Of a stretch of DNA of 51,309 nt, positions 1 to 51,309 are shown piece by piece (the stretch's first letter is position 1; the number at the start of each line of letters is the position of its first letter). The notes below the pieces were generated by a model, which was not told the origin of the DNA, did not search any database, and saw only the letters and a list, made by a program, of their open reading frames with translations. The stretch spans positions 1 through 51,309 of IMG/VR virus record IMGVR_UViG_3300009082_000024. One strand, given 5' to 3'. Both the position numbers and the translations under genes were made by a program. The DNA comes from a virus (taxonomy: Duplodnaviria > Caudoviricetes).

Positions 1-40
1 CACCCGTGATAGATATTTCCCCCGATTTTGCTTTTAACTC

Positions 41-32170: not shown

Positions 32171-32183
32171 CGAGGAGGTGTTT

Positions 32184-34592: not shown

Positions 34593-34698
34593 CACTGATG
34601 TTCTTAAAGAGCTCACTAAAGCCGTTACTGAGCTGGCTGATGAGGTCAAGAAGTTATCTAAAGAATGGGAAAAGTGGAGAAAAGCAGGGAAGTTTTAG
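34561..34698 (+). CDS. 45-aa helical peptide (not in ORF track)
   Basis: RBS AAGGAGG; MSEEKKEKLTDTDVLKELTKAVTELADEVKKLSKEWEKWRKAGKF. Confidence 0.6.
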   Translation: MSEEKKEKLTDTDVLKELTKAVTELADEVKKLSKEWEKWRKAGKF

Positions 34699-34712
34699 AA
34701 TGAGGAGGTTAA

Positions 34713-35516
34713 ATGGATAAAGTCACAAGGATAGCAGACAAAGTAGCAAACAGTATATCGACATCATTGAACATAGAAACTGTCACCAGCAAACTTGACC
34801 GCGGGGTTGCCATGATCATCTATAGCAATCCAGGCGTCGGGAAGACAACGCTGGCCTCAACGCTTCCCGTTGGCGAAACGATCTTCATCAACGTTGAAGG
34901 CGGAGTAGGGCCGCTGATGGGAACTGGCCATGTGTTGTTTAATCTCCCTAATGCTGTCAAAGATTACGAGATAGAAGAAGCTGTTGACAATCTGTATAAG
35001 TATCTTCGCACTGAAAAGCACGGGTTCAAGTATGTTGTCGTTGATAACATGAGTGAGCTTGAGCAGCAGCTGTTGCTGAACTTGACCATGCGCAGAAAGA
35101 AGGATACTCCAGAGTTGAGGGAGTACGGAGACGTTGGCTTCAAGATGAAAGAGTGGGTAAGGTTGTTCAGGGATTTAGTCTATCAAGGCATCACTGTGGT
35201 TTTCAACGCATGGGAAATACCGCTTGAGATCAAGAATGTTGATGGTGCTGTGATCACTCAGACATTTCCCATGATAGGCAAGAAGCTTGCACCTCAAGCT
35301 TGCGGCATAGTCGACATCGTTGGCCATCTTGAAGTGTACGAGAAGACTGGAAAACGCTGGGTGAGATTCGGGCCGTCAGACCAATACATCACAAAATCGC
35401 AATTTCAAGGACTTGAGAGCGGAGAACCTGCTGACATGAAGTTTATCTTAGATAAGCTTTATAGCTATGATTACAGTCAAAGACAAAAAAAGGAGGGTGC
35501 TAATGAAAGTAAGTGA
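34713..35516 (+). CDS. Sak4-like (AAA_24) ssDNA-annealing ATPase
   Basis: YSNPGVGKTT, INVEGG, VVVDN, DIVGHL; flanked by exonuclease and SSB. Confidence 0.85.
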   Translation: MDKVTRIADKVANSISTSLNIETVTSKLDRGVAMIIYSNPGVGKTTLASTLPVGETIFINVEGGVGPLMGTGHVLFNLPNAVKDYEIEEAVDNLYKYLRTEKHGFKYVVVDNMSELEQQLLLNLTMRRKKDTPELREYGDVGFKMKEWVRLFRDLVYQGITVVFNAWEIPLEIKNVDGAVITQTFPMIGKKLAPQACGIVDIVGHLEVYEKTGKRWVRFGPSDQYITKSQFQGLESGEPADMKFILDKLYSYDYSQRQKKEGANESK

Positions 35517-35661
35517 GTTATCTCAGCTTATCGCTGCCATCGAGGGCAAGAAGAAAGAAGTCAACATCGCCCAGATCAAGGAAATACTTTCGTGCGCGCA
35601 GAAGGTTACCAAAGAAAGAGGTTATGATTTTTACGCATGGTTAAGGAAGGTGGGAGAATGA
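35503..35661 (+). CDS. hypothetical protein
   Basis: RBS AAGGAGG gives ATG 35503. Confidence 0.6.
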   Translation: MKVSELSQLIAAIEGKKKEVNIAQIKEILSCAQKVTKERGYDFYAWLRKVGE

Positions 35662-35933
35662 TTACGTTTAAACCGCTTAGTGACTACATTGTTATCGAAC
35701 GCGTTATGGCTAAGACTTCAATAGCCTTGCCAGAGAACAGCGAAGCATGCAGCGATGACATCTTTGAAGTCGTTGCCGTAGGGTCTGGGGATGATGAACA
35801 CCCTATCACTGTTAATATCGGTGACAAGGTGTGCTTGACTGGATATATTAACACTTACGCTTATAAGGGCGTAAAGGTCATCCTAGGGCGTTCAAGAGAC
35901 GTCATAGCGATAGTCCAGGACACCCCGTTTTGA
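35658..35933 (+). CDS. groES: GroES-like co-chaperonin
   Basis: FKPLSDYIVI...EVVAVGSG...VNIGDKV...DVIAIV. Confidence 0.85.
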   Translation: MITFKPLSDYIVIERVMAKTSIALPENSEACSDDIFEVVAVGSGDDEHPITVNIGDKVCLTGYINTYAYKGVKVILGRSRDVIAIVQDTPF

Positions 35934-36052
35934 TGGGTTTTAGGGGGGTATTTAAAGCGTTTAAGGATTGGGGAAGGGTTAGACATGGGTCTACCCTTTC
36001 TGATTGTCCAGACAGCGTGTACGAACGCTCTGGAGCGAATAGAGGAGGTGTT

Positions 36053-36316
36053 ATGAACCCAAGGTACAAGGTAGGAGATTGGCTTCAATTGGAAGGTGCT
36101 GGTGAATGTCTAAAACTCAAAGTTTTAGGGGTTCTCACCGACACCTGTTCTGGTGGCACACAGATACATTACCTTTGTAGGCCATATGTTAAAGAGCAAT
36201 ATGGTTCTAAAGGTTGGTATCCCGCGCGTACTACTGCTACAGAACCTAACGCTTTGCAGCGTTTTAATGAGATAGAGGTTATACCTTTCGAAGAAAAGGA
36301 GGATAAATGCGTATAG
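36053..36316 (+). CDS. hypothetical protein
   Basis: RBS GAGGAGG gives ATG 36053; YKVGD start. Confidence 0.6.
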   Translation: MNPRYKVGDWLQLEGAGECLKLKVLGVLTDTCSGGTQIHYLCRPYVKEQYGSKGWYPARTTATEPNALQRFNEIEVIPFEEKEDKCV

Positions 36317-36756
36317 ACTGGGAAAAAGAAGGTGACGTTGAGTATCGTGTTTACCCAGAGGGTACTTATAGGATCAAGATTACTGGGTATGAAGAGACCA
36401 CGGCCAGCACAGGCACTAAGCAAATACGCTGGAGAGGTGTAGTGATCGCTCCGCAAGATCATGTCAACGGGCCTGTAACTACACATACGGCTCTTACCGA
36501 GAAGAGTTTATGGAGATTGGCGCGCTTAGTAAAGGCTTGCGGTATATCATTGAAAGAAGCAGGGTCTATGGAAGTTGGTTCTCCTGCGTTCTTTAGGGTA
36601 TTAGACGCATGCAAAGGCAGGACTACCTATTGGCAAATGAGCAAAGGCGTTGACAACAAGGGCAGAGAACGTAATGAAATAGATGACTTTGTCGTTGACG
36701 ACGAGTGTGAGGGAACCATCAGCAACGATGATGATGCTCCATCGTTTGTAAAGTAA
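36307..36756 (+). CDS. DUF669-type single-stranded DNA-binding protein
   Basis: PEGTY...E...STG..I...WRL..L.KACG; acidic tail ending PSFVK. Confidence 0.75.
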   Translation: MRIDWEKEGDVEYRVYPEGTYRIKITGYEETTASTGTKQIRWRGVVIAPQDHVNGPVTTHTALTEKSLWRLARLVKACGISLKEAGSMEVGSPAFFRVLDACKGRTTYWQMSKGVDNKGRERNEIDDFVVDDECEGTISNDDDAPSFVK

Positions 36757-36907
36757 TTGTGTCTCACCGAGAGTGGCGTGGTAGCCTGACTGGATGTATC
36801 TGGTTTAACTTATATGTAAGGTTGCAGACCAACTGCCTCTCGGTGGGCCCACATATATCACATGTGTATCACATACGTATCAATGATATACAAAATAAAG
36901 GCTGAGT

Positions 36908-37582
36908 ATGGATTGGATTAAAGTAAAAATAAAGCACATCGAATATCAATTCTCTTCCGCTCCTGCTGAAGTTTTTAAAACATGGATATTAGTCATGTCC
37001 TATGTTGCTGCTACAGAGTGTAAGCCATTACGTAATGCATTACGTAAACGTTACGGTAATGAAAACGTAAACAATCTTGATAAGTGGTGTGCTGAATGTG
37101 GTGTAAAACTCGATCTGATTATCGACAAAGTGTTGGAAGATGTTGAGTATCTTAACAGACGTAAGTCACACTACCGCAAGTACATGAGTAATTACAGGCG
37201 TAATGCCTTACGTAAGCCTTACGTAAGGTCTAACGTAAAGGGTAAGATAAGAGAAGATAAGATAAGAAATAATAATATATATATAAGCCATAAAAATGAC
37301 GTAAATGCAGCATCATCTGCACAAAAAGATGAGAACATTACTCAAGTAGCAACTCTCTCCTTAAAAAACTCTTTCCTAGACAGCAAAAAGAAAATCTACC
37401 CCATGCTCGATGTTGAGGGTGAAATACGCAAGTGTGTCGACTGGCACACCAATAAGGGACGTAAGATCAAAGATTGGGAGAGGGCAATCACGAACTGGCT
37501 TAGCATAGCTTACGACAGGAAAGGAGTGGTAGGTGCGAAGGAAGTTGATGATACCCCTGGTTATTTAAAGAGGGTGCTATGA
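36908..37582 (+). CDS. replication initiator (lambda O/DnaD-like organisation)
   Basis: MDWIK start, central low-complexity linker with iterons, C-terminal IKDWERAITNW. Confidence 0.7.
   Translation: MDWIKVKIKHIEYQFSSAPAEVFKTWILVMSYVAATECKPLRNALRKRYGNENVNNLDKWCAECGVKLDLIIDKVLEDVEYLNRRKSHYRKYMSNYRRNALRKPYVRSNVKGKIREDKIRNNNIYISHKNDVNAASSAQKDENITQVATLSLKNSFLDSKKKIYPMLDVEGEIRKCVDWHTNKGRKIKDWERAITNWLSIAYDRKGVVGAKEVDDTPGYLKRVL
37026..37287. repeat. iterons and AT-rich tract, putative replication origin
   Basis: TTACGTAA at 37028, 37040, 37208, 37219; TAACGTAA at 37231; GATAA repeats and AT tract to ~37287. Confidence 0.7.
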
Positions 37583-37779
37583 GAACAAGAAGATGTAAGT
37601 TTTGCGGTAGTATACTTTCACAACATAATAAAACCTCATATTGTTTTATTCACGCTTACAAGGAGGAAGAGGAAGATGACAAAGTTAGAAATACTAACCG
37701 TCATAATATTTATAGCGGTAATCGGAAAATCGATATGGTTATTGACTCGGGATTACCAGAAACAACGCAGGGTTTATAA
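37579..37779 (+). CDS. small Zn-finger protein
   Basis: CKFC...CFIH; ATGA coupling. Confidence 0.5.
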   Translation: MRTRRCKFCGSILSQHNKTSYCFIHAYKEEEEDDKVRNTNRHNIYSGNRKIDMVIDSGLPETTQGL

Positions 37780-38053
37780 AGCATCTTGGTATTATAAGGC
37801 AGGCACATGCGCTGACGGGTCTAAGTTCACCAATGATTTTACTTGTGCCACATGGTTATTTCCTCTGGGTACACATCTTATGATTACTAACATCGGTAAT
37901 AAGAAAGTTGTTTTTGTTAAAGTCACTGACAGGACAGCTCGTAAGTATTCGACAAGGATAGACCTTTCTAAGAAAGCTTTTAGTAGGATAGGGTCTCTCA
38001 AGAAGGGAGTGATATTTGTTAATGCAAAAGTTTATAAGTTTGGAAATCTATGA
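37676..38053 (+). CDS. RlpA-like double-psi beta-barrel (lytic transglycosylase-like) with N-terminal TM
   Basis: ASWY...TCA...PLGT.L.ITN...VFVKVTDR...IDLSKKAF..IG. Confidence 0.85.
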   Translation: MTKLEILTVIIFIAVIGKSIWLLTRDYQKQRRVYKASWYYKAGTCADGSKFTNDFTCATWLFPLGTHLMITNIGNKKVVFVKVTDRTARKYSTRIDLSKKAFSRIGSLKKGVIFVNAKVYKFGNL

Positions 38054-38063
38054 GGAGGTAGAG

Positions 38064-38300
38064 ATGGATGATGTAGAAGCAGTTTTTAAAGACGATTTAG
38101 GAAACGAGGTAGCTAGGAAGCTAGATCTTTCTTTAGTGGGGAGGCTGTTTTGTAATTTGGAAACAGCTAGGGAGTTATTAGGGCATAAGACTATAAAATC
38201 AGCTTTAAGATATGTTCATGGAGAAATAACCCAGCTGCCAGAATACAAGTTCATAGAGGGGATAGTAATGAGGGAGGGCGGACAGTGGAAAAAGACATAA
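38064..38300 (+). CDS. hypothetical protein
   Basis: RBS GAGGAGG gives ATG 38064. Confidence 0.55.
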   Translation: MDDVEAVFKDDLGNEVARKLDLSLVGRLFCNLETARELLGHKTIKSALRYVHGEITQLPEYKFIEGIVMREGGQWKKT

Positions 38301-38587
38301 AAGAAGATTGGATTAAAGAGTTAGACGAATGCCTTAAAGACTTCTCTGATTACGTTGATAAAGAATTGCGCGCGGCCATGCGTCAGGAAGAATTAAGAGA
38401 CCTCGAAGATGAGTTGCGTTGTCTTGAGAATGACATTGAACACTTTGAACAGTCGCGTGTACAGAATCTCTTTACTGACTTAAACGATACTTATACTATG
38501 CTTCTCAAACAACTAAGAAAGGAAACACATGAAATCAGAAAGACTCTCGCGAGTGAGGAAGTTAAGCGACTGGGCAAAGAATCTTGA
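38285..38587 (+). CDS. coiled-coil hypothetical protein
   Basis: GTG start with GGAGG. Confidence 0.55.
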   Translation: MEKDIKEDWIKELDECLKDFSDYVDKELRAAMRQEELRDLEDELRCLENDIEHFEQSRVQNLFTDLNDTYTMLLKQLRKETHEIRKTLASEEVKRLGKES

Positions 38588-39506
38588 AGATGAGTTCTGG
38601 AAAAGAGGGGAGGCTCCAGAGCTTGGGTTCATCTCGCTGCCAGCGTTGACGAAGAAGCTGTGGGGACTGCGCAAGAAAGCGTTGACCATTGTAGGTGCGA
38701 GGACTTCTCAGGGTAAGAGTACTTTTGCATTGCAGTTGGCATATGACATAGCTTCTCAGGGTAAGTTCGTGTGGTTCTTATCGTTGGAGATGGATGTAGA
38801 GAGCCTTTTAGAGAGATTGTTTTGTCATGTGGAACGCATAGATAACTTTACTGTGTTGTCTGGGCAGTTCAGCAAAGACGAGAAAATAAGGAATTCGTGG
38901 AGGGTGTTTAAAGATAAGATAGCTTCGTTGAAAATGCTGATAACTTGTGATATAGGCAAGACATGGGGGGAGACCAGCAAGATGCTTGAGATCGTTGGTG
39001 AAAAGAAGCCCGATGTGGTTGTCGTTGATTATATCCAGAATATATCGACACGGCCTGGGGATACCAGAGAATCTATTAACGAATATTTGCGCCAGTTCAG
39101 GAATCTTGCCATCGCCAACGATTTTGCTGGTATCCTGTGTTCACAGATCAACAGAGGCGCTGATAATACCAAAGGCCCTACGCTATCACAGCTGAAGGAG
39201 TCTGGGTTTCTCGAGGAGAGTGCTGATGTAGTCTTGCTGCTGCATTGGGAGGGTCAGACCACCGAGGATAAAGACATTGTCGACAGTAAATACACTGTGA
39301 TAATGGCTAAGAACCGTAACGGAAGGACAGGTATACACCCACTGTTATATACGCCGAAGTTCTATCGCTTCGAGGAGATCCCAGCTAACCGCGGGTTCGT
39401 TCTTCCGACTCCGAGCGTTGGCGATGACGGGTTTATCCAGCAAGTTGTTGAGATGTTCGGGGGTGAAGTTGTAGACCCAGATAGAGATTTACCGAGAGGA
39501 GGCTGA
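38529..39506 (+). CDS. dnaB: DnaB-like replicative helicase (C-terminal domain only)
   Basis: GARTSQGKS, FLSLEM, VVDYIQ, SQINR, LKESGFLEESAD, AKNRNG. Confidence 0.92.
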   Translation: MKSERLSRVRKLSDWAKNLEDEFWKRGEAPELGFISLPALTKKLWGLRKKALTIVGARTSQGKSTFALQLAYDIASQGKFVWFLSLEMDVESLLERLFCHVERIDNFTVLSGQFSKDEKIRNSWRVFKDKIASLKMLITCDIGKTWGETSKMLEIVGEKKPDVVVVDYIQNISTRPGDTRESINEYLRQFRNLAIANDFAGILCSQINRGADNTKGPTLSQLKESGFLEESADVVLLLHWEGQTTEDKDIVDSKYTVIMAKNRNGRTGIHPLLYTPKFYRFEEIPANRGFVLPTPSVGDDGFIQQVVEMFGGEVVDPDRDLPRGG

Positions 39507-41633: not shown

Positions 41634-42125
41634 ATGATGGTTATTGTCTGGACGATTTTGTTTACGTTGCTCAATGCTTTCCTGTATCGTATTGGCGGTC
41701 TTTCCAAAGAAGATGCAAAGAAGAAATTCCCGTGGTATCCTCAAGCATTAGTCAACACAAAGGCCCGCGACATAGGCATAGCGTTGACAACGATAGCTTG
41801 GTTGCTGTTGTGCCATCCCGTGATGCCGTGGTTTATATATCTAATAACTTTCGGGGTTACATTCGCAGCGTTGACAACGTACTGGGATTCTCTCTTCGGC
41901 GAGGACAACTTCTTTTTTCATGGTCTTGTCATCGGTTTGGCTAAACTTGGTTGCGTGATAATAACTGGTCATTGGATAGGTTTTATTGTCCACACTTTGG
42001 TTTTAGCGGTGGGCATGTGGCTTGTTTCAGTGATGATTGTGGACTGGGCTGAAGATGCTGACTTTGAGGAGTGTGGCAGAGGAGCTATGACGGCGTTAGC
42101 AATGCCTCTCATGCTGATTGGATAG
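41634..42125 (+). CDS. integral membrane protein
   Basis: 4-5 hydrophobic segments; LYRIGG, LTTYWD, EECGRG. Confidence 0.7.
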   Translation: MMVIVWTILFTLLNAFLYRIGGLSKEDAKKKFPWYPQALVNTKARDIGIALTTIAWLLLCHPVMPWFIYLITFGVTFAALTTYWDSLFGEDNFFFHGLVIGLAKLGCVIITGHWIGFIVHTLVLAVGMWLVSVMIVDWAEDADFEECGRGAMTALAMPLMLIG

Positions 42126-42393
42126 ACTTTACTACTTCTTCTATGACGGTGACTATATCATCTTTTTTGCTCTTGAGGAAATCAGTAAGATGCCAGCAAG
42201 TTTTTCTTCTTTTCCATTGCCAGCAATCACAATAATAAGTACCGTCTTTAGCTTGGATTATGTGATACTCAGCTTCATGAGTTTTGCTTTTATAAGTTCT
42301 GATGATGATACTTGCTTCGAATGTTTCAGACCAGTACCTTAGAGTATCTTCCCAGAACTTATCTTTTCGCAAGTTCTTTTTTCTTGTCCTCAT
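42109..42393 (-). CDS. SWIM zinc-finger protein
   Basis: YYCDC...KTCWHL (CxC-n-CxH). Confidence 0.75.
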   Translation of the reverse strand: MRTRKKNLRKDKFWEDTLRYWSETFEASIIIRTYKSKTHEAEYHIIQAKDGTYYCDCWQWKRRKTCWHLTDFLKSKKDDIVTVIEEVVKSIQSA

Positions 42394-42396
42394 TGT

Positions 42397-42609
42397 TCAT
42401 CCTCTTTTTTCCTCGAGCGGAACTTCGCTCGCTTGCTCAGCCTTCTTCTTTACCCAATGATAGATACAAATAACTTCCCACCTGTTTAAGTTTTCTATGT
42501 ACTTAGGCGGGACATCAGGGTACCCTACCATCTTTAAGATTTCTCTATACATAGATGATTTGGATATGTGGGGATCAGAATTACATAGCGGGCACGGGTT
42601 AGGTTTCAT
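42397..42609 (-). CDS. hypothetical protein
   Basis: PCPLC; ATGA coupling. Confidence 0.55.
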   Translation of the reverse strand: MKPNPCPLCNSDPHISKSSMYREILKMVGYPDVPPKYIENLNRWEVICIYHWVKKKAEQASEVPLEEKRG

Positions 42610-42875
42610 AAGTCCTCCCTCATTGCGTCAAACTTGCTTATTGTGAACCTTTTTATGTCTTGGGTGATTTGAGTAAGAGTCACTATGAATTTTTCTCTGT
42701 CAACATTACTGGACGCAAAGGTGGCGGCTAAGGCTTGGGTTAATTCTGATGTCAACACACTTAACAATCCAGCGATTGAGTCTTTTGAGTTTTCATGTAC
42801 CGCATCGCACGCTTGTGCGTAAACATTTACTGCTGCATGGATTACAATCTTTAACTTTTTTTCTCGATCATTCAT
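42606..42875 (-). CDS. hypothetical helical protein
   Basis: RBS AAGGAGG. Confidence 0.65.
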   Translation of the reverse strand: MNDREKKLKIVIHAAVNVYAQACDAVHENSKDSIAGLLSVLTSELTQALAATFASSNVDREKFIVTLTQITQDIKRFTISKFDAMREDL

Positions 42876-42883
42876 AATCCTCC

Positions 42884-43540
42884 TTAGATCATCTTGATCT
42901 TTTTTCTTTCTGTTGCTACTGGAGCAGCTACTTTTTCAGGTACTGACTCATTAAGATGTTCAAATACTTTTTGCTCTTTGAACACACCTATTTCCAAGCC
43001 CCACTTATTCTCAAATGATACCGCTCTTATGTAACCGTCACTGGCAACAAAACCTCTGCTGCTTGTGCAGAACTCACCACGTGCTACTAATTTATTCTCG
43101 TTAAGATATTCCCAAAGCTTGCGCATCTGGAAAAGATTATTCCTTTTAGCCTGATCCCTGTCGAAGTCTTTCTTCATCCCATTGTCATCAGGGAATATCT
43201 CATAATAAGATGCTATCACATAGTTGTCCGTGTAATTAGAAAGCTGTTGATACCCTGTAAGCTGCATCACTTTTGTCTGTGAGTTCTCGTTGACTTGCTC
43301 ATTGTTGTACCAGAACGTGAGTTCTGATTTACCATAGATGGTTCCGTCATCATCGACCCATTGTCTTGTGAGCTGTCCTTGCTGTAACACTACACCATTG
43401 ACAACGCTTTTCTCTTTAGCTATCTTCCCCGTGGGAGTCTTTGCGACTATCTCTGGCCGCTCCATCCTTGAAAGATTTTCATACCGCACATTCATGCTGA
43501 CACCGAGATTAGTGTCGGCGATCTGTAATTTGTAAGCCAT
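42884..43540 (-). CDS. divergent Ku-like DNA end-binding protein
   Basis: Colinear by-eye match to bacterial Ku core: LGVSMNVRY; TKVMQLTGYQQLSNYTDNYVIASYYEIFPDDNG; KLWEYLNENKLVARGEF. Confidence 0.65.
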   Translation of the reverse strand: MAYKLQIADTNLGVSMNVRYENLSRMERPEIVAKTPTGKIAKEKSVVNGVVLQQGQLTRQWVDDDGTIYGKSELTFWYNNEQVNENSQTKVMQLTGYQQLSNYTDNYVIASYYEIFPDDNGMKKDFDRDQAKRNNLFQMRKLWEYLNENKLVARGEFCTSSRGFVASDGYIRAVSFENKWGLEIGVFKEQKVFEHLNESVPEKVAAPVATERKKIKMI

Positions 43541-43559
43541 GATCCCTCCTTTTTTCCTT

Positions 43560-43665
43560 CTGCACCCAAGCCATACGCTTGCACTCTTCTTTTTCGTTCA
43601 GCCCTGCGGGCTGCTTTTTCATTGTTCTTCTCTTTCTTATCTTTGTCGCTGCTGGCAGGGTGCAG
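43560..43665 (-). ncRNA. structured intergenic element between vWA and Ku-like genes
   Basis: CTGCACCC/GGGTGCAG and GCCA/TGGC closing stem; inner CAGCCC/GGGCTG hairpin. Confidence 0.4.
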
Positions 43666-43682
43666 TCTTTCGTTTCTGCCTT

Positions 43683-45218
43683 TCATTCTAACATTGTTTT
43701 GATAGTTTCCATGATCACCATGTCAGCGTGTTCATCGGCTATAATATTACTTTCTCCAGCTATAGTCTGGACAAAAGCTCCTGTTAATTCAGCACCGATG
43801 CCTACTACCATACATTTTACTTCAGCTCCGTGCTTGATGATCTGCACGCGCAGGTTGTCTATCTCATCTTTCCCCACATAACCGTCAGTCATCAGGACGA
43901 CAAGCTTGTTACCGTCTATCTCCTGATTGCTGAGTATGTCAGCCTGCACTTTCATAAACGCTTTGTAAAGGTCAGTTCCACCGCTATTAGCGGAGTATTC
44001 TTTCTCCCAATTATCACCATGCTTATAAGCATTTGTGTCGAAACTCCATACATCATAGCTTATGTTAAGCCCTTCCTGTTCCTGTATGTCTTTTAAGATC
44101 TCGATGATGCTTCTTACCGTACGCACTACCACCTTTTTCCTGTCACTTCCATCGATCATCCGTGATGACATCGAGCCTGATGCGTCCAAGCAGAAAGCTA
44201 TCTTACTTTTCTTTACCTTGACTATGTCATCTTCGTGGAATAATTCTTCTATGTCTCCAGTAAAGAATGAAGTGATAGCCTCTGTGTTAAGCTTGGCTCC
44301 TTCGAATACCATTCTCTTTTCTTTGACCGCTAATAGTTCCTTAAATGAGTTCTTAGTGAGCTCTTGAAACGCTGCGCTTCCAATAATTTCTTTGCTTGCT
44401 CCTTTGATACCGCTTCCTTTGTCCCAAGCAGAGCTAGGATTGAGGAAACGCTTAGTGTCGCCAATGTGTAGCACATCTTCATTGCCACCAAGTCCAGCTG
44501 GACTAGATCCGCTGCCTTCACTTCCTTTTTCTTGGCCGCCTTCACCTTGCCCTTGGCTTTGTCCTTCTTTTTTGTTTTCATCAGCCCCTCCTTGTTGAAT
44601 TGATATTTGCATCTCTTGTATTTGCGGGTCGTCTTCGTCTTTGATCTTGAACAGTTCCTTTACTTTCTTAATAGCTTTTTTTACTTCTTCCCAGTTGTTG
44701 CTTTCAATATCATTGATCGCTTGACGCATGAGCGAATATATATTGTTGTCTTCATTGAACTTTAATGCTTCCGTGTCATTCAACGTTTGAAATCCTTCGT
44801 TATAAAGTATGCCGTTGATAAGGCAACGTGTCATGAGATGTTCTTTCTTCATCTCCTCAAGTTTGGGATAAACATGTTGCTTTAATAATTCTCCATAAAA
44901 TTCTTTTATATTGTCAAGCATCCTGAAATTCTTCAGGTCTATTCTCAGGTCTTCAAAAGCGTTCAATATATTATGGCTTATTATTCTTCCGTCAGATACT
45001 TCTTTCGGTATGACACCGCTAAACTTAAGATGGGCTGCTTCGTGCATCAGCAAGGCTAATGCTCCCAATACATTATGTTCCTTGAGATCACACGGCATAT
45101 ATATTTCGTTCTTTGTCGGGTTAGAACTTGCTCCCTGTGCTTGTGCGTCAAATATAACCTTTGCGTTATGCTTAGAGGCGCACCATTTGGCAAGCAGTTC
45201 GAATGTCATTCTTTGCAT
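43683..45218 (-). CDS. CobT-like protein: HExxH N-domain, low-complexity linker, vWA (MIDAS) domain
   Basis: LMHEAAH...NAFEDLRI; GQ/GE-rich linker; LDASGSM, GGT, MTDG, VGIG. Confidence 0.88.
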   Translation of the reverse strand: MQRMTFELLAKWCASKHNAKVIFDAQAQGASSNPTKNEIYMPCDLKEHNVLGALALLMHEAAHLKFSGVIPKEVSDGRIISHNILNAFEDLRIDLKNFRMLDNIKEFYGELLKQHVYPKLEEMKKEHLMTRCLINGILYNEGFQTLNDTEALKFNEDNNIYSLMRQAINDIESNNWEEVKKAIKKVKELFKIKDEDDPQIQEMQISIQQGGADENKKEGQSQGQGEGGQEKGSEGSGSSPAGLGGNEDVLHIGDTKRFLNPSSAWDKGSGIKGASKEIIGSAAFQELTKNSFKELLAVKEKRMVFEGAKLNTEAITSFFTGDIEELFHEDDIVKVKKSKIAFCLDASGSMSSRMIDGSDRKKVVVRTVRSIIEILKDIQEQEGLNISYDVWSFDTNAYKHGDNWEKEYSANSGGTDLYKAFMKVQADILSNQEIDGNKLVVLMTDGYVGKDEIDNLRVQIIKHGAEVKCMVVGIGAELTGAFVQTIAGESNIIADEHADMVIMETIKTMLE

Positions 45219-45231
45219 ACATCGTCTCCTT

Positions 45232-45370
45232 TCAACGCTCTCGTCGCGCTACACGGGACAGAACGCTACGCAGCCGTGATCTTGCCTGCTTTCTTTTGCT
45301 GTCCTGCCTTCTCTCTGCAAGTATCACGGCACGCTCCGCTCTCTGTCCCGTGAGTGCTCCTCGGCGTTGA
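45232..45370 (-). ncRNA. long interrupted hairpin between AAA+ and vWA genes
   Basis: TCAACGC/GCGTTGA, CACGGGACAGA/TCTGTCCCGTG, GCCGTGAT/ATCACGGC, CTTGC/GCAAG nested. Confidence 0.6.
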
Positions 45371-45374
45371 CCAT

Positions 45375-46523
45375 TCATTCTCCTACTCTCTCCTTTTCGC
45401 TTTGTGGCATCAGTTCTTTCCATACTGCTTGGGCAAGCCTGAAGAAAGCTTCTTTCGCTTTAGGCTGACTGACTGCTTCCATGATGCTGGTGATACCATC
45501 TTCGATAGCGTGCTGCAACGGCATACCATGTATCCACAAGTCAATGCAGTTATTAAGCTGCCGTATGCTGATGTCAACGGGGATATTGGCTTGCTCAATA
45601 GTTTGCAAGCAGGCGAAATAGAACTTGGTAAACCTTTCGATGTCATCGCTGTGCAGTTGCGGGAACTTCTTTCTTATTGCAAGTTTTATTTCTTTTACGC
45701 TGAACTCTGGAAATGTCAGATAGGTACACCTGCCTAAGAAATTACTTGCCTTGATATTACCGCCGATATACTTTGCGCTCTTCGGGTTCTGGGCAAAAGC
45801 GAGTTTGCAATCATCATGCAGCCGATACACTTTGCCTTTTCCACCGTCAGCGTCTTTGATAAACAGTTCTCTGTTCCACATGAACGCATGGAAATCAAAT
45901 GTACCTGCATTTGAAAGGGCATTGATCTCATCAAAGCATATCAGGCACGGCCCTTGGACAGCCTTCACGAATGTACTTTCTTGGAACATCACACTGCCGT
46001 TTTGTATGGTCTTATCACCAAATAACTTTGGCAATTTAAAATCCTCATACATCGAGAAAAGTAAGAACGGAAGCTTTCTTACATGCGCATAGTACATGAT
46101 TGAATAGGTCTTGCCAGTCCCCTGCTTTCCTTGGCACAAGGGATACTTCCAATGTCCTGCCCTGCTTGCGTCAAGATGATGAGCGAGCCTTTTATCTATG
46201 TCCCGTATGACATAGTTTGAGAATTCTTCCTCGACTGGGATAAAACGCTTCATCTCATCGCTGACCTGATATTCTTTCACCGCGATTGTTTCTTTCTTAG
46301 TAGTCACTTCTTCTGTTTGTTTTGGTTCTCCTATTCCGCTGCTTAATGGCTGGCCCATCTCTATGAATCTGCCTCGTATTGTCGAGTCGTCCATCTCTAT
46401 GTTGTGCTGGGTTTTCAACGCGTCTTTGATCTGCCACGCGCGGACTTTTGCATTTGTCTTAGCGAGTTCATCTCTGATCGCTAATAATATCTTGTCATCT
46501 ACCCTGTCTACTGGCGGCATCAT
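45375..46523 (-). CDS. MoxR/CobS-family AAA+ ATPase with N-terminal HTH-like extension
   Basis: GKQGTGKT, CFDEIN, AQNP, SIRQL. Confidence 0.9.
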   Translation of the reverse strand: MMPPVDRVDDKILLAIRDELAKTNAKVRAWQIKDALKTQHNIEMDDSTIRGRFIEMGQPLSSGIGEPKQTEEVTTKKETIAVKEYQVSDEMKRFIPVEEEFSNYVIRDIDKRLAHHLDASRAGHWKYPLCQGKQGTGKTYSIMYYAHVRKLPFLLFSMYEDFKLPKLFGDKTIQNGSVMFQESTFVKAVQGPCLICFDEINALSNAGTFDFHAFMWNRELFIKDADGGKGKVYRLHDDCKLAFAQNPKSAKYIGGNIKASNFLGRCTYLTFPEFSVKEIKLAIRKKFPQLHSDDIERFTKFYFACLQTIEQANIPVDISIRQLNNCIDLWIHGMPLQHAIEDGITSIMEAVSQPKAKEAFFRLAQAVWKELMPQSEKERVGE

Positions 46524-47344
46524 TCCTCCTCTCCTTCTTTTTTAATGAAAATTGGGTTTCTTAATGAACCTGAATCCAATACTCCAAGATGCTGTATCAC
46601 CACTTTATCTCCTACCTTCAGGTTTTTCTTGTGTTTTGCCGATACCTTTACTCCGCATGATATGCCGAGAGTGTGACTGTTTGGTGATGGTAGTCCGCTT
46701 GTGTTTGGCAACGGCACTATTATCTCTATTCTTTCCTGTGTGCTTGAGATAGAGTGCACTTCGTAGACATTAGTGTCTCTGCATTTTATTTTTACCCAAG
46801 GACACGGCCCTACTTGGAATACTGAGTCCAATGATTTAACCACGACTCCTTCATATCCCTGTCCCATCACATACAATGCGTAAGTGTGTGCTTCAGTTGC
46901 GTTGGTCACTAACCTGCATTGCCCGAGATATTTCTTCCTGAACAATTCTGTGATCATTTCTTTTCTTTCTACGAGTGGTCTTGTGTCAACTACTCCGCGT
47001 ATTGCCATATCATAGATGATAAAATTAAGGTCATCGGAGTCTTTGTGTTTGAGAAGTTGATAGAGAGCTTGGTTCTTGCCTTCGCCATAGAACAATTCAC
47101 AATAGAGATAAGCATACTCAAGGTTGGTTGTCCGCATGATGTCCGCTATTTCTACAAGCTTATCCCATTTTGTTCTTATTGTCCCATGCTTATTAGCAGC
47201 AAATATCTCGGCGCCTCTTTGGTAGACGATCACCATTGCTTCACCGTCATATTTTATTTCGGCAAAACTCGGGTATCGCAGGCCAGCCAAGCTTCCTCTA
47301 TGCTCTGGGAATCTCGCTTTCGGGCCATTCTTCGATAGTAACAT
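46520..47344 (-). CDS. ATP-dependent DNA ligase
   Basis: EIKYDGE (I), FIIYD (IIIa), GYEGVVVK (IV), WVKIK (V), SLRNPIF (VI); RBS GAGGTG favours ATG 47344. Confidence 0.9.
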   Translation of the reverse strand: MLLSKNGPKARFPEHRGSLAGLRYPSFAEIKYDGEAMVIVYQRGAEIFAANKHGTIRTKWDKLVEIADIMRTTNLEYAYLYCELFYGEGKNQALYQLLKHKDSDDLNFIIYDMAIRGVVDTRPLVERKEMITELFRKKYLGQCRLVTNATEAHTYALYVMGQGYEGVVVKSLDSVFQVGPCPWVKIKCRDTNVYEVHSISSTQERIEIIVPLPNTSGLPSPNSHTLGISCGVKVSAKHKKNLKVGDKVVIQHLGVLDSGSLRNPIFIKKEGEEE

Positions 47345-47441
47345 CTTCCACCTCTTTACCGCAGTGCGGGCACCACTTGACCCATTCTTCATCGAACTTG
47401 TCAATACAAAGCTGGCGCCCGCAATAAGGACAATTACACAT
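47298..47441 (-). CDS. Zn-ribbon peptide
   Basis: MCNCPYCG...WCPHCG; RBS AAGGAG. Confidence 0.55.
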   Translation of the reverse strand: MCNCPYCGRQLCIDKFDEEWVKWCPHCGKEVEDVTIEEWPESEIPRA

Positions 47442-47595
47442 CTGACATCTCCTTTTGTTCCAGTAATGACTCTTCTTTAAAACACTGGTCACAAAGATAG
47501 TATCCGCCTGTGTAGTCGTCAAAGTTCTCTTCCTTGAATTTAGCTTTTTTGGGATTAAGCATTTTACCACACCCGAGACACTCGACAAGTTTCAT
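47434..47595 (-). CDS. Zn-ribbon peptide (not in ORF track)
   Basis: MKLVECLGCG...LCDQCF, 53 aa; ATGA-coupled to the PC4-like gene. Confidence 0.6.
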   Translation of the reverse strand: MKLVECLGCGKMLNPKKAKFKEENFDDYTGGYYLCDQCFKEESLLEQKEMSDV

Positions 47596-47819
47596 TTTTG
47601 TCCTGCCTTAGCGGCCTCTGTCTCCGCTATTTCAATGAGTGATATAAGTTCCGCTATCTTATTATATTCAAGAGCAATCCCCTTTTTCGTTGGTGTAAAA
47701 TCAACGCTGCCCTTTGGCTTGAAGAAATCCCTGATGTCGAGAAAGTTACGTCCTTTGAACTCAGTGAGCCTTATTTTTGTCACTACTGCGCTAGTCTTTT
47801 TAATCTCTCCTATCTCCAT
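47592..47819 (-). CDS. PC4/YdbC-like ssDNA-binding protein
   Basis: EFKGRNFLDIRDFF...PTKKGIAL. Confidence 0.9.
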   Translation of the reverse strand: MEIGEIKKTSAVVTKIRLTEFKGRNFLDIRDFFKPKGSVDFTPTKKGIALEYNKIAELISLIEIAETEAAKAGQK

Positions 47820-48066
47820 TGTTACCTCCTAGTTCTTTTACTGTCTTAGCAATTGCTTCGATCAATGTCTTTCCCATTTCACAACCCATTACCTTGAATT
47901 TTTCAACGTTGGCGATACAATTGTTTAATGCAAATGCAAATCCTTTACCGTGGTTTTCTCCTTTGCAGAAGCATTTACACTCTGTGCCTTTAGCGTTGTA
48001 GCATCGCGCATCGCAGGTATGTGCCCGCTTGTCACCTTCTTTCTTTAATCTGAAGAGCGTTGCCAT
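47800..48066 (-). CDS. Cys-rich metal-binding protein
   Basis: CDARCYNAKGTECKCFCKGENHG. Confidence 0.7.
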   Translation of the reverse strand: MATLFRLKKEGDKRAHTCDARCYNAKGTECKCFCKGENHGKGFAFALNNCIANVEKFKVMGCEMGKTLIEAIAKTVKELGGNNGDRRD

Positions 48067-48259
48067 TAGTCACCTCCTTCCAGCATTTTGGACAAAAAAG
48101 AATAGATTTATCTGTTGACCATTCCTTTCTGTCGTTGAGCCCTTTCGTAGCCCGCTGCATGCTTACTCTGATCTTTCTTTTTTTGAGAGGCCTTTGGCAT
48201 ATATCGCATGCAATAACATATGCTGTGCAAACCTTGGTTACTTTTTTCTTTATTACCAT
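48032..48259 (-). CDS. Zn-ribbon protein
   Basis: CDIC...CPKC. Confidence 0.6.
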   Translation of the reverse strand: MVIKKKVTKVCTAYVIACDICQRPLKKRKIRVSMQRATKGLNDRKEWSTDKSILFCPKCWKEVTNGNALQIKERR

Positions 48260-48696
48260 ATCTCAAACCCCCCGCTGTTGGCGCAGAACGTTGCGAACTC
48301 TGTCACATTCTCAACAGTAAACGGATAGCTTTTTGCCCACGCTTCCCTCTTTCCTGTACCGTTGCACGCTTTGCACGTGGCTGTTTCAAGTTTCTTTTCC
48401 ACGCAAAAACAATCTTCATCAGGAAGCGACTCAAGAAACTTTTCTCTGTCCTGTTTATATTGCAATGCTTCTCCGTTTTCCACCGCTTCTCTTAATCGTT
48501 TTGCAATAGCAATTGCTTTACTGCTAGTGATAAGCATGCCGTCATTGTAATGACCGCTCTTTACTTCTTCTGGAGTTATGATGTCCGAGCATGTCTTTTC
48601 CACAAACTCCCAAAGCGGACGCCAATACCAGCAGTTATTCCTGAAATACTCACCCACTTTTTGTTTCGGTTCTTTGCCTGTCAAATCAAATCCCAT
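48253..48696 (-). CDS. phage hypothetical protein
   Basis: MGFDL...YFRNNCWYWRPLW...CKACNGTG...FCANSGGFEIW. Confidence 0.75.
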   Translation of the reverse strand: MGFDLTGKEPKQKVGEYFRNNCWYWRPLWEFVEKTCSDIITPEEVKSGHYNDGMLITSSKAIAIAKRLREAVENGEALQYKQDREKFLESLPDEDCFCVEKKLETATCKACNGTGKREAWAKSYPFTVENVTEFATFCANSGGFEIW

Positions 48697-48841
48697 CCTT
48701 CCTCACCTCCTTTCCCTTATTTCTAAGTGTTCCACAATCAGTACACTTGTAGATCTTCTGTTGTGGCTTACCGTACTTTTTATACTTTAAACTTCCACAC
48801 CGAGGACATTTGAAATAAACTTTTGAATAGATATTACCCAT
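48686..48841 (-). CDS. Zn-ribbon peptide, InsA-like spacing (not in ORF track)
   Basis: MGNIYSKVYFKCPRCGSLKYKKYGKPQQKIYKCTDCG, 51 aa. Confidence 0.6.
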   Translation of the reverse strand: MGNIYSKVYFKCPRCGSLKYKKYGKPQQKIYKCTDCGTLRNKGKEVRKDGI

Positions 48842-49200
48842 CACTTATCTCCTCTTGGCAGTCTTAAGTAATTCCATGTTGTATCATCGATAAACGCTAC
48901 CCTTCTTTTTATTATTTCTTTAAGCTTATCCTTGTTGCTGTCATTCATCCATCTTTGTACTGCTTCTTCCTTGATGACGGCCCAATTTCCAGTGCGATAA
49001 GGGTTATCGCCTGACTCACCATCTCTTACAGATATCAGTATTATTCCTTGTTTCATAAACCCTTTGCACTTGTCGCAAGGTTCATGGTTATATACTGCTT
49101 GACGCGGAAGGCTGTTCTTTAATCTTCTATCAAGCAGTATTTCTTTTGGCTCGTTGCATAAGAAACATAAACTCATCCCTACATGGCTTAATTCTTCCAT
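48841..49200 (-). CDS. phage hypothetical protein
   Basis: CFLC...EPCDKC...NPYRTG. Confidence 0.7.
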   Translation of the reverse strand: MEELSHVGMSLCFLCNEPKEILLDRRLKNSLPRQAVYNHEPCDKCKGFMKQGIILISVRDGESGDNPYRTGNWAVIKEEAVQRWMNDSNKDKLKEIIKRRVAFIDDTTWNYLRLPRGDK

Positions 49201-49208
49201 AGGACTCC

Positions 49209-49391
49209 TTATCTTGATACCACTTTGCTTATTTTAAATTCTTTCCTGCAATTAAAGCAGCGTATGATATCGCCTTTGTGTGCTGCCTGTAATACGGTTG
49301 CCGCTGTGCACTGCTTATAGGGACAAGCGACAACGTATACCTTGTTTGCTTGTGTTGCTATTGCATTACGATATCTTTCTTTCGGTTTCAT
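49209..49391 (-). CDS. Zn-ribbon protein
   Basis: CPYKQC...CFNC. Confidence 0.6.
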   Translation of the reverse strand: MKPKERYRNAIATQANKVYVVACPYKQCTAATVLQAAHKGDIIRCFNCRKEFKISKVVSR

Positions 49392-49512
49392 TCTTCCTCC
49401 ACTTGCTTGTAAGCAGATTAAACATCACCTGCTGGCCGTCATTCTGGTCAGTATCTGAACACTTGTCGCAGATTATCTCCTGACTTGGTTGATTACAAAC
49501 TTCACATCTCAT
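49366..49512 (-). CDS. Zn-finger peptide (not in ORF track)
   Basis: MRCEVC...ICDKC, 48 aa. Confidence 0.5.
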   Translation of the reverse strand: MRCEVCNQPSQEIICDKCSDTDQNDGQQVMFNLLTSKWRKNETERKIS

Positions 49513-49596
49513 AGCCACCCCTTATTATCCGCATACATGCAGATAAGTATTATTACTATCATCCCTATTAAAACTGCCCAGTCTCCTCTATCCATG

Positions 49597-49791
49597 TCAT
49601 TCATCCTTGCCAAACACATCGTCTTGGCATTTTTTGCACATGCCTGATATGTTAAACTCTTTGAGCCCCAGCTCATCGAAGGCGCTTGTGTCCACCTTAT
49701 TCCCACATATCGGGCACATCCCCTGCTCCACAAGTTTCACTAAGTTACCGAAACCAGTCATCTCAAGTATCTTCTTTGTTCCTTCTTTCAT
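49597..49791 (-). CDS. Zn-finger protein
   Basis: CPICG...EFNISGMCKKCQDDVF. Confidence 0.7.
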   Translation of the reverse strand: MKEGTKKILEMTGFGNLVKLVEQGMCPICGNKVDTSAFDELGLKEFNISGMCKKCQDDVFGKDE

Positions 49792-49803
49792 CGCTCCCTC
49801 CTC

Positions 49804-50040
49804 TTAGAAATGTTCAGGCTGTTCGTCATAATTAACCTTCGCACACAATTCAGCCATGGCATCTTCCCAATTAGCAAGCACTTGCTGTGCGTCAGGCGAC
49901 AACTGGTCATATTCCAAATCGTCAGCAAAGTAATCATTCAGCTCGCCTCTCAAGTTCAGATACTCTTTCTCGTTCTCTCTTGTCTCTGGGTTGTAATGTG
50001 TATGATCCTGTATCATCACATCAATGTCACCGAATAACAT
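49804..50040 (-). CDS. acidic hypothetical protein
   Basis: RBS GAGGAGG; strongly acidic. Confidence 0.6.
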   Translation of the reverse strand: MLFGDIDVMIQDHTHYNPETRENEKEYLNLRGELNDYFADDLEYDQLSPDAQQVLANWEDAMAELCAKVNYDEQPEHF

Positions 50041-50139
50041 AAGCACCTCCTCTTTGTTGGCGATAGTTCCTCTTACAGGCGTTTTTGTATGGAGAGAACC
50101 CCTCTAAGGTCACTATTAACCGAATATTCATAACTCTCA

Positions 50140-50472
50140 TCATAAAATCCCATTGTTCATATCTTCCTGTATCCTTTCTACATATTCTTCAAGTGTCTCA
50201 TCAGCCTTTAACTTATATCCAGCTTGAAGAAACTTAAGTACTAATATCTGTAATCTGTCCTCTGCCCTGTCCTCTCTGTTTCTCAGTTCTCTATTCATCT
50301 CAGCATTACGCTCATCACTCTCAAACATCTCGGCCTTTGTTATCTTATGTCTCTGCATGCAGCCATATGAAGTAAGTTTGCTGATACCCGAGCTTTCATC
50401 GGTTGTAAACCGTTCAGCAAAACGTTCTCTGTTCTTTACCCTTTCGTAATTGTTGTTACCAAATTTATCCAT
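50140..50472 (-). CDS. hypothetical protein
   Basis: RBS AAGGGGG gives ATG 50472. Confidence 0.6.
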   Translation of the reverse strand: MDKFGNNNYERVKNRERFAERFTTDESSGISKLTSYGCMQRHKITKAEMFESDERNAEMNRELRNREDRAEDRLQILVLKFLQAGYKLKADETLEEYVERIQEDMNNGIL

Positions 50473-50517
50473 ATAATCCCCCTTTATGGCGCGAGCTTCG
50501 CGTAGCAAGAAGCGAGC

Positions 50518-50608
50518 AGAGAACAATCAATCGACTCTCCGCCTGCCAGCTTTGCAGTCTCTCATCGTTCGTCAACGACTACAGGAGAGCCGACTTGACT
50601 GTTACTCT
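50518..50608 (-). ncRNA. multibranch structured intergenic RNA
   Basis: Long outer stem with G-U pairs that form only on the minus strand; inner TGTAGTC/GACTGCA stem. Confidence 0.6.
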
Positions 50609-50616
50609 ACGGATTG

Positions 50617-50769
50617 TTAGGCTTTCTTGAAACTTCCAAGTCTTAGAACATTAGGCATCTTTAACTTATACCCACATGCACAAGTCAAGAGCGTAAAGCC
50701 TTTTCCTGTGTAAAGCCTTTTAGTAACAGCTCTTTTGGTGAGGCATTTTGGGCATAATACTTTTTTCAT
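50617..50769 (-). CDS. Zn-ribbon peptide
   Basis: CPKC...CACG; RBS AAGGGGG gives ATG 50769. Confidence 0.6.
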   Translation of the reverse strand: MKKVLCPKCLTKRAVTKRLYTGKGFTLLTCACGYKLKMPNVLRLGSFKKA

Positions 50770-50832
50770 GTTGTCCCCCTTGTTTATTACATTAATTATT
50801 AAGTTATTAACCCAGAGCAAGAAAAAAAACAG

Positions 50833-50860
50833 TGAGCAGTTTAACGTCTTGCTCAGGACG
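50833..50860 (-). promoter_or_regulatory. H-type pseudoknot followed by U tract
   Basis: CGTC-CTGAGCAA-GACG-TTAAAC-TGCTCA then T8. Confidence 0.55.
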
Positions 50861-50865
50861 GATTG

Positions 50866-51105
50866 TTAGGCTTTCTTCTCTTTGGGAGTCCACATACTGA
50901 ACTTATACCTATGGAACTCTTGGCCTGCGCTTTGGCTGTTCTCACCAGCTTTGAACCCTTCCGCTACGACGTTGATAGTAATCTTCGTCTTGCCGTTGGC
51001 TTTGGCTGATGCAAGCAACAACTCGAAGTCCTCGATGCTGCGTGTGAGGCTGAGTACCTCAACTCCCTGATTGTCTTGTCTAGCTCTCGCAACTCCTTCT
51101 AACAT
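50866..51105 (-). CDS. hypothetical protein
   Basis: GAGGTG upstream; first gene of leftward block. Confidence 0.6.
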   Translation of the reverse strand: MLEGVARARQDNQGVEVLSLTRSIEDFELLLASAKANGKTKITINVVAEGFKAGENSQSAGQEFHRYKFSMWTPKEKKA

Positions 51106-51202
51106 GGTACACCTCGCTCATTAGAGACAATGCGTATGTCTAACTGCATACGTTCAGTACAGAACTCTACTGCGAGCCCTGCGAAGAAGGGCAAGCAGTT
51201 AG

Positions 51203-51278
51203 CCAACGCTTTTATCAACGCCAACGGCATACCACCCCCAACGCTTTTATCAACGCCAACGGCATACCACCCCTAACG
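51203..51278. repeat. 35-bp tandem repeat, two exact copies plus a partial third
   Basis: CCAACGCTTTTATCAACGCCAACGGCATACCACCC at 51203 and 51238. Confidence 0.9.
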
Positions 51279-51309
51279 TGTTTTTTTTCTCGCCCGTGGG
51301 GCGGGTGAC

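Follow-up and report, generated by a model that had tools for sequence, protein, structure and literature searches.

A phage-encoded Ku-like protein and ATP-dependent DNA ligase linked to an AAA+/vWA pair, a candidate system for joining non-redundant genome ends

The window analysed here is the entire IMG/VR virus record IMGVR_UViG_3300009082_000024 (51,309 bp, classed as linear, CheckV completeness 98%). Its minus strand carries, at 42109-47819, a cluster of nine co-oriented open reading frames (ORFs) that includes a divergent Ku-like protein, a minimal ATP-dependent DNA ligase, a MoxR/CobS-type AAA+ ATPase and a protein combining an HExxH motif with a domain of the von Willebrand factor A (vWA) type. 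Relatives of this phage share conserved contig ends, and joined forms of these ends occur in the same lineage; both observations are new here. With modest confidence, we favour the reading that the phage-encoded Ku and ligase join the genome termini into circles or head-to-tail concatemers. A first-pass annotation of the region had proposed a self-contained end-joining system in which the AAA+/vWA pair loads or removes Ku rings. The Ku fold, the complete ligase, the synteny, the termini and the joined forms described below support the end-joining part of that proposal; loading or removal of Ku by the pair is not demonstrated. A literature search weighted towards open-access sources returned no paper on Ku, a ligase and a MoxR/CobS-vWA pair together.

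The Ku-like protein, the ligase and their linkage

The first-pass annotation had staked its reading beforehand on a Ku fold at 42884-43540, and structure prediction together with a transitive sequence link bears this out. The AlphaFold2 (AF2) model of the protein, built on 41 relatives, reaches a pLDDT of 71 and a pTM of 0.56, and a Foldseek comparison with the PDB gave 108 matches at E<=0.001; among the matches listed, 41/41 are Ku70/80 or bacterial Ku. The best of them is 1jey_B (E 3.6e-8, Foldseek probability 1.00), B. subtilis and M. tuberculosis Ku are also listed, and the bacterial Ku 9vnq_A aligns with TM-scores of 0.45/0.43. Against BFVD, the two matches at E<=0.001 are the Ku of Mycobacterium phage Dylan and a Ku homologue from an uncultured phage.

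At the sequence level, the protein has 228 unannotated metagenome relatives in a 90%-identity protein database, and a profile of its family (A1) retrieved 60 proteins, none of them annotated, from 1.84 billion representatives. The same profile reaches the distant members P0178 (E 4.9e-4) and P0167 (E 1e-7). P0178 in turn matches Pfam Ku at E 9.8e-8, with 32.5 bits against a cut-off of 25, and weak matches to the same model were found for P0167 (8e-4) and P0177, Pfam Ku being matched by 5/37 scanned family members. An hhalign comparison of A1 with the distant group A4 gave a probability of 99.85%. In the proteins of this family the tail varies but closes with a conserved K-K-L/I-K-M/V-V/I peptide.

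Several results pull in the opposite direction. Direct family searches with the window protein gave no match to Pfam Ku (PF02735) at E<=0.1 and none in NCBIfam or PHROG, and no Ku was found when the PDB was searched by sequence, either with the protein (phmmer) or with the A1 profile; a wider profile (A2) did place M. tuberculosis Ku at the top, yet only at E 0.19. The AF2 model is of moderate confidence, with TM-scores of 0.39-0.48 and root-mean-square deviations of 9-16 A, values to be expected when a ring protein is modelled as a monomer, which nonetheless call for caution. The Protein Atlas single-sequence model (pLDDT 0.33) returned TM-scores that were all below 0.5, no Ku-like match and no usable feature match. 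As for the other Ku-related phage family, Mu Gam (PF07352) gave no Pfam match at E<=0.1 and no Gam protein is present among the BFVD fold matches at E<=0.001. On the predicted fold and the profile links, the product of 42884-43540 is best described as a real, very divergent Ku-core homologue, outside Pfam recognition and not Gam-like. It presumably forms a ring-shaped homodimer and binds DNA ends.

The second component is a ligase whose ORF (46520-47404) is open from a TTG at 47404. Its likely start is M21, at 47344, which yields a protein of 274 aa; an identical 274-aa protein is on record as P0221, and homologues begin at the same position. The protein matches Pfam DNA_ligase_A_M (PF01068; E 3.4e-9, 37.1 bits against a cut-off of 26.2) and PHROG 114 (E 2e-15), and all 42 of the 42 PDB matches of its family profile are ATP-dependent DNA ligases. 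The KxDG motif is kept in 9/9 ligase sequences, while residues K31, D33, G34, E83, E165, G166, K170, K185, K187 and R262 are invariant across 28 sequences, so that the motif set is complete, comprising nucleotidyltransferase motifs I-V and motif VI of the OB domain. The best NCBIfam match is the LigD ligase-domain model (E 1.2e-10), at 41 bits against a cut-off of 228; LigD models as a whole score 38-41 bits against cut-offs of 228-373, and the polymerase (AEP) and phosphoesterase domains of LigD are lacking. To the detriment of a dedicated end-joining role, such a phage ligase could simply be the replication ligase. A complex prediction with two Ku copies and the ligase scored 0.01 against a mark of 0.32 and is usable neither for nor against binding; the two proteins may cooperate.

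All six genes named in the first-pass annotation (PC4, ligase, AAA+, HExxH/vWA, Ku-like and SWIM) were recovered on the minus strand, together with three small ORFs of 53, 89 and 70 aa that it had left unmentioned. It had also described the ligase as coupled to the next gene through an ATGA, and the ligase stop and the AAA+ start do overlap in this way (letters ggaggaATGAtg). Its description of the run as tightly packed holds in part, since gaps of 90-156 nt occur in three places: 156 nt between the AAA+ and vWA genes, 142 nt between the vWA and Ku genes, and ~90 nt between the 53-aa ORF and the ligase. Counts from a promoter and terminator scan were not above those of shuffled sequence (16 vs 11.5, standard deviation 3.4; 8 vs 5.4, standard deviation 2.6).

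The arrangement recurs well beyond the window. We collected 18 related contigs, comprising nine IMG/VR contigs found through Ku, one found through AAA+ (L018), one from a metagenome (L010) and seven from metagenome-assembled genomes (MAGs) in GTDB. The ligase, AAA+, vWA and Ku genes lie together on one strand in 12 of the 18, and the remaining six are contigs of 1.3-9.3 kb truncated at the cluster; each of the six near-complete genomes (92-100% completeness) has the full set of four. The set is retained at low identity in L018 (29% for Ku, 32% for the ligase and 29% for vWA). The first-pass annotation had made its proposal depend on homologues being syntenic in other phages, and they are, down to a Ku identity of 29%. 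Of the 15 related contigs with Ku, 14 also have the ligase, the exception (L002) being cut at the 5' end of Ku.

What varies is the position of Ku, for which five orders were found, always within ~3 kb of the ligase. It follows vWA in seven cases (the window counted), lies between AAA+ and vWA in two (L004 and L007), between the ligase and AAA+ in one, and after AAA+ and SWIM in one; in the other four it is upstream of the ligase, directly adjacent to it in two of them (L010 and L100). The most constant feature is the position of the ligase directly upstream of AAA+, seen in 15 of the 16 contigs holding both. The cluster is a non-chance arrangement. All loci belong to one phage lineage, which lessens the weight of this evidence, since inheritance explains part of the linkage; that the genes have stayed together through repeated rearrangement argues for selection.

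Profiles of the distant Ku groups A5, A6 and A7 found nothing in IMG/VR, and A5 recovered from metagenome contigs one contig of 1.6 kb, L010; the A1 profile found nothing in GTDB genomes, and neither did blastn of the region among GenBank phages. Tblastn of the Ku-like protein, the vWA protein, the ligase and P0178 against 50,697 GenBank phage records gave no relative; for AAA+, the same search gave partial matches (~29% identity, covering 35-38% of the query) in 31 Gordonia/Tsukamurella records. Five further records related through the large terminase gene (TerL), 57-78% complete, are without Ku and AAA+; the terminase end is where at least four of them begin, and they appear to stop before the early block, so that this absence carries no information on co-loss.

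Genome termini and joined forms

A substrate for end joining is suggested by the ends of the related contigs. Of 67 IMG/VR loci carrying a TerL relative, 42 lie on contigs that stop 400-935 nt upstream of TerL, 10 on contigs truncated within TerL and 15 on contigs that run through. The 42 stopping contigs, some of which are duplicate records (e.g. L054/L055 and L044/L089), begin exactly with CACC in 25 cases and with CCCC in six, and a similar motif then follows. At the other end, GTGAC closes three of the five near-complete linear genomes (the window, G001 and G002). The two ends are found joined, as [G/A]TGAC|C[A/C]CC, in 7 of the 13 run-through contigs of the lineage, 582-934 nt upstream of TerL. 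Three of these seven match contigs ending at that point with 100% identity over 400 nt, and the Ku cluster is likewise present on three (those of L003, L004 and L006).

At the junction the linear ends abut exactly, neither duplicating nor losing a base; no direct repeat of at least 30 nt is present between the two ends of the window, and IMG/VR classes the records as linear, without end repeats. These findings suggest that the termini are cut at a specific site, are blunt or nearly so, carry no redundancy and become joined, the blunt form of the virion ends being deduced from assemblies. Flush, non-redundant ends cannot anneal or recombine, and their joining needs a synapsis protein and a sealing ligase, both of which are encoded by every complete genome of the lineage. 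If true, such termini would represent an unusual packaging strategy.

Three points temper this picture. The right ends of G003 and G004 differ, that is, two of the five near-complete linear genomes. The blunt ends are read from assembly stops, and the genomes that supply left ends, right ends and junctions are not the same ones. The flush appearance may hide an overhang of 1-2 nt or be produced by library preparation.

Two other kinds of terminus were considered and rejected. Terminal repeats, if collapsed in the assembly, would leave the junction covered, and breaks in 42/67 contigs would not then be seen. Hairpin or protein-primed ends were set aside because neither a protelomerase nor a DNA polymerase is present among the 39 window ORFs scanned and the junction is no conserved palindrome.

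The events that would connect these termini with the cluster can be laid out as follows. DNA of unit length would be packaged and cut at a fixed GTGAC^CACC site, flush or nearly flush and with no terminal redundancy. After injection, expression of the minus-strand early block would provide the Ku-like protein, presumably a ring-shaped homodimer, which would bind and bridge both ends, and the 274-aa ligase, which would seal them into the circular or head-to-tail form seen as joined contigs. This form would then serve replication and packaging. The PC4-like and SWIM proteins may act as accessory DNA binders, and the AAA+/HExxH-vWA pair, translationally coupled to the ligase, may remodel the complex, for instance by stripping off Ku rings that remain caught on the DNA after sealing.

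Mu Gam is a Ku relative, a small phage protein that binds and protects DNA ends. A similar role can be envisaged for the window protein, which would cap linear ends against RecBCD/AddAB, with the ligase engaged in ordinary replication and repair and the clustering reflecting a shared early DNA metabolism. Mu Gam is not known to be linked to a ligase. In this lineage, the distance between Ku and the ligase never exceeds ~3 kb in any of the five gene orders, and the two are directly adjacent in L010 and L100. Exposed double-strand ends are present in this genome, as end protection would require, and a general-purpose ligase would fit a phage that owns PD-(D/E)XK, AAA_24, DUF669 and DnaB_C genes; these same ends, however, share nothing to anneal or recombine and nonetheless occur in joined GTGAC|CACC forms, so that something must join them. 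The lack of a Gam match in Pfam and the identity of both BFVD matches as Ku also speak against Gam-like capping, and we judge this explanation unlikely.

Nor is the proposed activity necessarily restricted to termini. A Ku and ligase would in principle work on any double-strand end, and the module could mainly reseal phage DNA cut by restriction or CRISPR systems, a use that the first-pass annotation had also put forward. Imprecise joining within genes would usually be lethal to a phage, however, and the conserved termini and joined forms offer a simpler, constitutive substrate, which makes an anti-defence repair function very improbable in our view.

End joining by Ku and ligase also has known counterparts. 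The nearest viral structural match of the window protein is the Ku of Dylan, a relative of Corndog, and Corndog and Omega are among the 11 viral Ku sequences given in the accessible part of one study (PMC11936186). These phages resemble the present lineage in encoding a Ku fold and in having linear genomes whose ends have little or nothing to anneal. They differ in that the window Ku is missed by Pfam Ku, that the phage brings its own ligase instead of using host LigD, and that an AAA+/vWA pair is linked to both. The short cohesive ends of Corndog and Omega are reportedly joined with host LigD, a finding attributed to Pitcher et al. 2006. The encoding of a Ku core together with an ATP-dependent ligase is shared with bacterial Ku-LigD non-homologous end joining (NHEJ), from which the window ligase is set apart by its small size (274 aa) and by the lack of polymerase and phosphoesterase domains; in LigD, the polymerase domain has a role in the contact with Ku. 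With Mu Gam, finally, the window protein shares its small size, its phage origin and its membership of the Ku superfamily, in the absence of any match to Gam in sequence or fold.

Known phage Ku proteins come mainly from a small number of actinobacteriophages, which rely on a ligase of the host; the Ku family described here escapes Pfam and is accompanied by a ligase of its own. A compact end-joining kit of two to four genes could be of use as a tool.

The AAA+/HExxH-vWA pair

The AAA+ protein matches Pfam AAA_5 (E 3.6e-7, 30.7 bits against a cut-off of 22), and in the PDB it matches midasin AAA domains (E 3.7e-13), with its family profile also matching CbbQ/NirQ/NorQ (6.3e-4). All nine of the nine AAA+ sequences compared retain the Walker A motif GKQGTGKT and the Walker B DE pair. 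Its partner matches Pfam VWA at E 7.4e-7, and a scan of its family detected VWA_2 in 34/34 and VWA in 33/34 members. [quoted passage not shown] The AF2 model of the vWA protein has a pLDDT of 81.4, and its top Foldseek matches are the VWA domain of NorD in NorQD complexes and the MIDAS domain of Rea1/MDN1. For the HExxH domain, the one peptidase family matched is MPTase-PolyVal, in 2/34 members at E 0.017, and we describe it as a putative metallopeptidase. In the homologues of L006, L008 and L009, the disordered linker carries paired CxxCxGxG motifs of the DnaJ zinc-finger type.

This pair resembles the widespread viral CobS/CobT-like pair, in which an AAA_5 ATPase likewise stands next to a protein with an HExxH N-domain and a MIDAS vWA domain; the difference lies in its coupling here to a DNA ligase and a Ku homologue, and its tie to Ku is suggested by gene arrangement. 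It may well be independent of Ku and the ligase, a generic CobS/CobT-like pair that acts on host CobN, hijacking cobalt chelatase, or serves as a virion-assembly chaperone. This possibility concerns the unity of the module alone and is compatible with end joining by Ku and the ligase. Two published accounts are in line with it, and the occurrence of such pairs without Ku counts against the module as a whole. The accessible text of Liu et al. (PMC8651126) describes cobST pairs as widespread in tailed viruses, many of them without Ku, and proposes hijack of host CobN, while that of Iyer et al. (PMC7824862) reads MoxR and metallopeptidase-vWA pairs of jumbo phages as chaperones, with a proposed role in virion assembly; neither text, as far as accessible, links the pair to DNA end joining.

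The sequence matches of the window pair point partly in the same direction. AAA+ matches PHROG 249, a CobS-type family annotated as 'porphyrin biosynthesis', at E 1.3e-15. The N-terminal domain of CobT (PF06213) gave no Pfam match, CobT_C (PF11775) was matched in 1/34 members (E 0.0068), and the Protein Atlas neighbours of the vWA N-domain, which serve as leads only, include clusters with 20-79% CobT-carrying members. An unrelated phage contig of 12.4 kb (L021) encodes a distant AAA_5 and CobT_C/vWA pair with no detected ligase or Ku, a further point for independence. Set against these are the position of the ligase directly upstream of AAA+ in 15/16 contigs, with the ATGA overlap in the window, the insertion of Ku between AAA+ and vWA in L004 and L007, and the location of the pair in the early DNA-metabolism block, away from the structural genes. 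We give the independence of the pair a nearly even chance.

Direct involvement of the pair in remodelling, for example in the removal of trapped Ku rings, is a tentative proposal that we regard as possible but doubtful; it is based on linkage that survives rearrangement and on the translational coupling of ligase and AAA+. The more encompassing scheme, in which this sediment and soil phage lineage depends on a four-part machine, with a flush terminase cut, rejoining by Ku and ligase, and an AAA+/vWA-HExxH pair that pulls or cuts trapped Ku rings off closed DNA, seems unlikely to hold in full. In L021 (8106-11645), a weak SprT-like metalloprotease match (E 7.7e-5, below the cut-off) lies directly upstream of the AAA_5 and CobT_C/vWA pair, a neighbour which hints that such pairs may have to do with handling protein-DNA complexes.

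In eukaryotes, Ku rings left trapped once DNA has been repaired are pulled off by the AAA+ ATPase p97/VCP, and the removal of Ku proposed here would be a functional analogy only. The best PDB fold matches of the window Ku are Ku80 and Ku70 chains. In eukaryotic Ku, a vWA domain is part of the protein itself, according to the accessible part of PMC11936186; in the window, the vWA domain is instead found on a separate protein, has an intact MIDAS and is NorD/Rea1-like, and there is no ubiquitin system. No Ku70/80 vWA domain is present among the best 50 Foldseek matches listed for the vWA protein. Should the removal of Ku rings prove true, it would constitute a viral counterpart of p97-driven Ku extraction and a first function for the viral 'CobS/CobT' pair, and would reveal a vWA protein acting as a separate partner of Ku, akin to what was later fused in eukaryotic Ku70/80. 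The coupling to Ku and ligase suggests a testable function to a widespread viral gene pair that has so far been explained by guesses (cobalt chelation, virion assembly), and it bears on how prokaryotic Ku rings leave sealed DNA.

Occurrence and remaining genes

DNA nearly identical to the window is found in freshwater-sediment and soil metagenomes from several studies. The seven GTDB MAG contigs (L094-L100) were binned in five Candidatus Omnitrophota MAGs, one MAG of the Microgenomates group and one unclassified MAG. Canonical Ku is present in 4/151 sampled Candidatus Omnitrophota genomes and in 0/5 of the MAGs holding cluster contigs, and the phage-type Ku in 1/151, the centre genome only. 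A host without NHEJ is weakly hinted at by these counts, binning being no proof of host.

The features of the cluster and of the two genome ends are listed in Table 1.

Table 1 Features of the minus-strand cluster and termini of the window
Feature	Position	Strand	Basis
Left terminus, terminase side, 5'-CACCCG...	1..30		same start as TerL-relative contigs
SWIM-type zinc-finger protein, 94 aa	42109..42393	-	CxCx(n)CxH motif alone
CxxC protein, 70 aa	42397..42609	-	ORF; no Pfam/PHROG match
Protein of 89 aa	42606..42875	-	ORF
Divergent Ku-core homologue (predicted), 218 aa	42884..43540	-	AF2 fold match and transitive sequence link
CobT-like partner, 511 aa	43683..45218	-	helical HExxH N-domain (1-200), disordered linker (203-244), C-terminal vWA with MIDAS
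MoxR/CobS-type AAA+ ATPase, 382 aa	45375..46523	-	start overlaps ligase stop (ATGA); Pfam AAA_5, PHROG 249
Minimal ATP-dependent DNA ligase, 274 aa	46520..47344	-	nucleotidyltransferase and OB domains; Pfam DNA_ligase_A_M
Zinc-ribbon-like CxxC...CxxC protein, 53 aa	47434..47595	-	ORF; end overlaps PC4 gene by 4 nt
PC4-like ssDNA-binding protein, 75 aa	47592..47819	-	Pfam PC4 E 2.6e-10, 40.1 bits against a cut-off of 25
Right terminus, early-gene side, ...GGGTGAC-3'	51280..51309		GTGAC ends shared with G001, G002

Relatives of the PC4-like protein were found by tblastn in L001, L003, L004, L094 and L100. The 94-aa protein has no match to Pfam SWIM (PF04434) at E<=0.1, and the CxCx(n)CxH signature on which its name is based is kept in 11/11 aligned homologues. 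The 53-aa CxxC protein has Pfam matches that are weak and below the cut-offs, with a single weak tblastn match in L001, and the 70-aa CxxC protein has one weak tblastn relative, in L007, placed between Ku and vWA. For the 89-aa protein, no Pfam or PHROG family was found at the thresholds used, and tblastn gave no match in the loci searched.

In the genome as a whole, the plus strand begins at the left end with an HTH small-terminase-like gene, followed by TerL, portal, major head protein and tail genes, then by a 2637-aa ORF and by the ParB_N-like, PD-(D/E)XK, AAA_24, DUF669 and DnaB_C genes. From the right end, the minus-strand block extends inward until it converges with the plus-strand block at ~42.1 kb, the cluster forming its inner 5.7 kb. 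The 2637-aa ORF (24059-31972), amid the structural genes, has no Pfam match at E<=0.001. The stretch at 32178-39506 amounts to a recombination and replication set (ParB_N-like, PD-(D/E)XK nuclease, AAA_24, DUF669 and DnaB_C helicase) and also holds a protein with a DPBB_1 (lytic transglycolase) domain. The 39 longer window ORFs that were scanned include no match to a DNA polymerase or primase family.

Near the right end of the window, two perfect tandem copies of a 35-nt unit occupy 51203-51272 and end 37 nt from the terminus; they could be a packaging, terminase-recognition or origin element. Logan contigs from four runs match 46310-51309; those listed break off at 51232 or 51267, within this repeat, and none reaches the right end. 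In G004 (L024), a relative that is 100% complete, the TerL homologue (663-2153) contains one in-frame TAG, which could be a sequencing error, a mark of a pseudogene or a case of recoding. The minus strand at 47800-51309 encodes many very small proteins with CxxC pairs and a zinc-ribbon look, poorly conserved among relatives, and a 147-aa early ORF at 48253-48696 contains one CxxCxGxG motif of the DnaJ zinc-finger type, CKACNGTGK.

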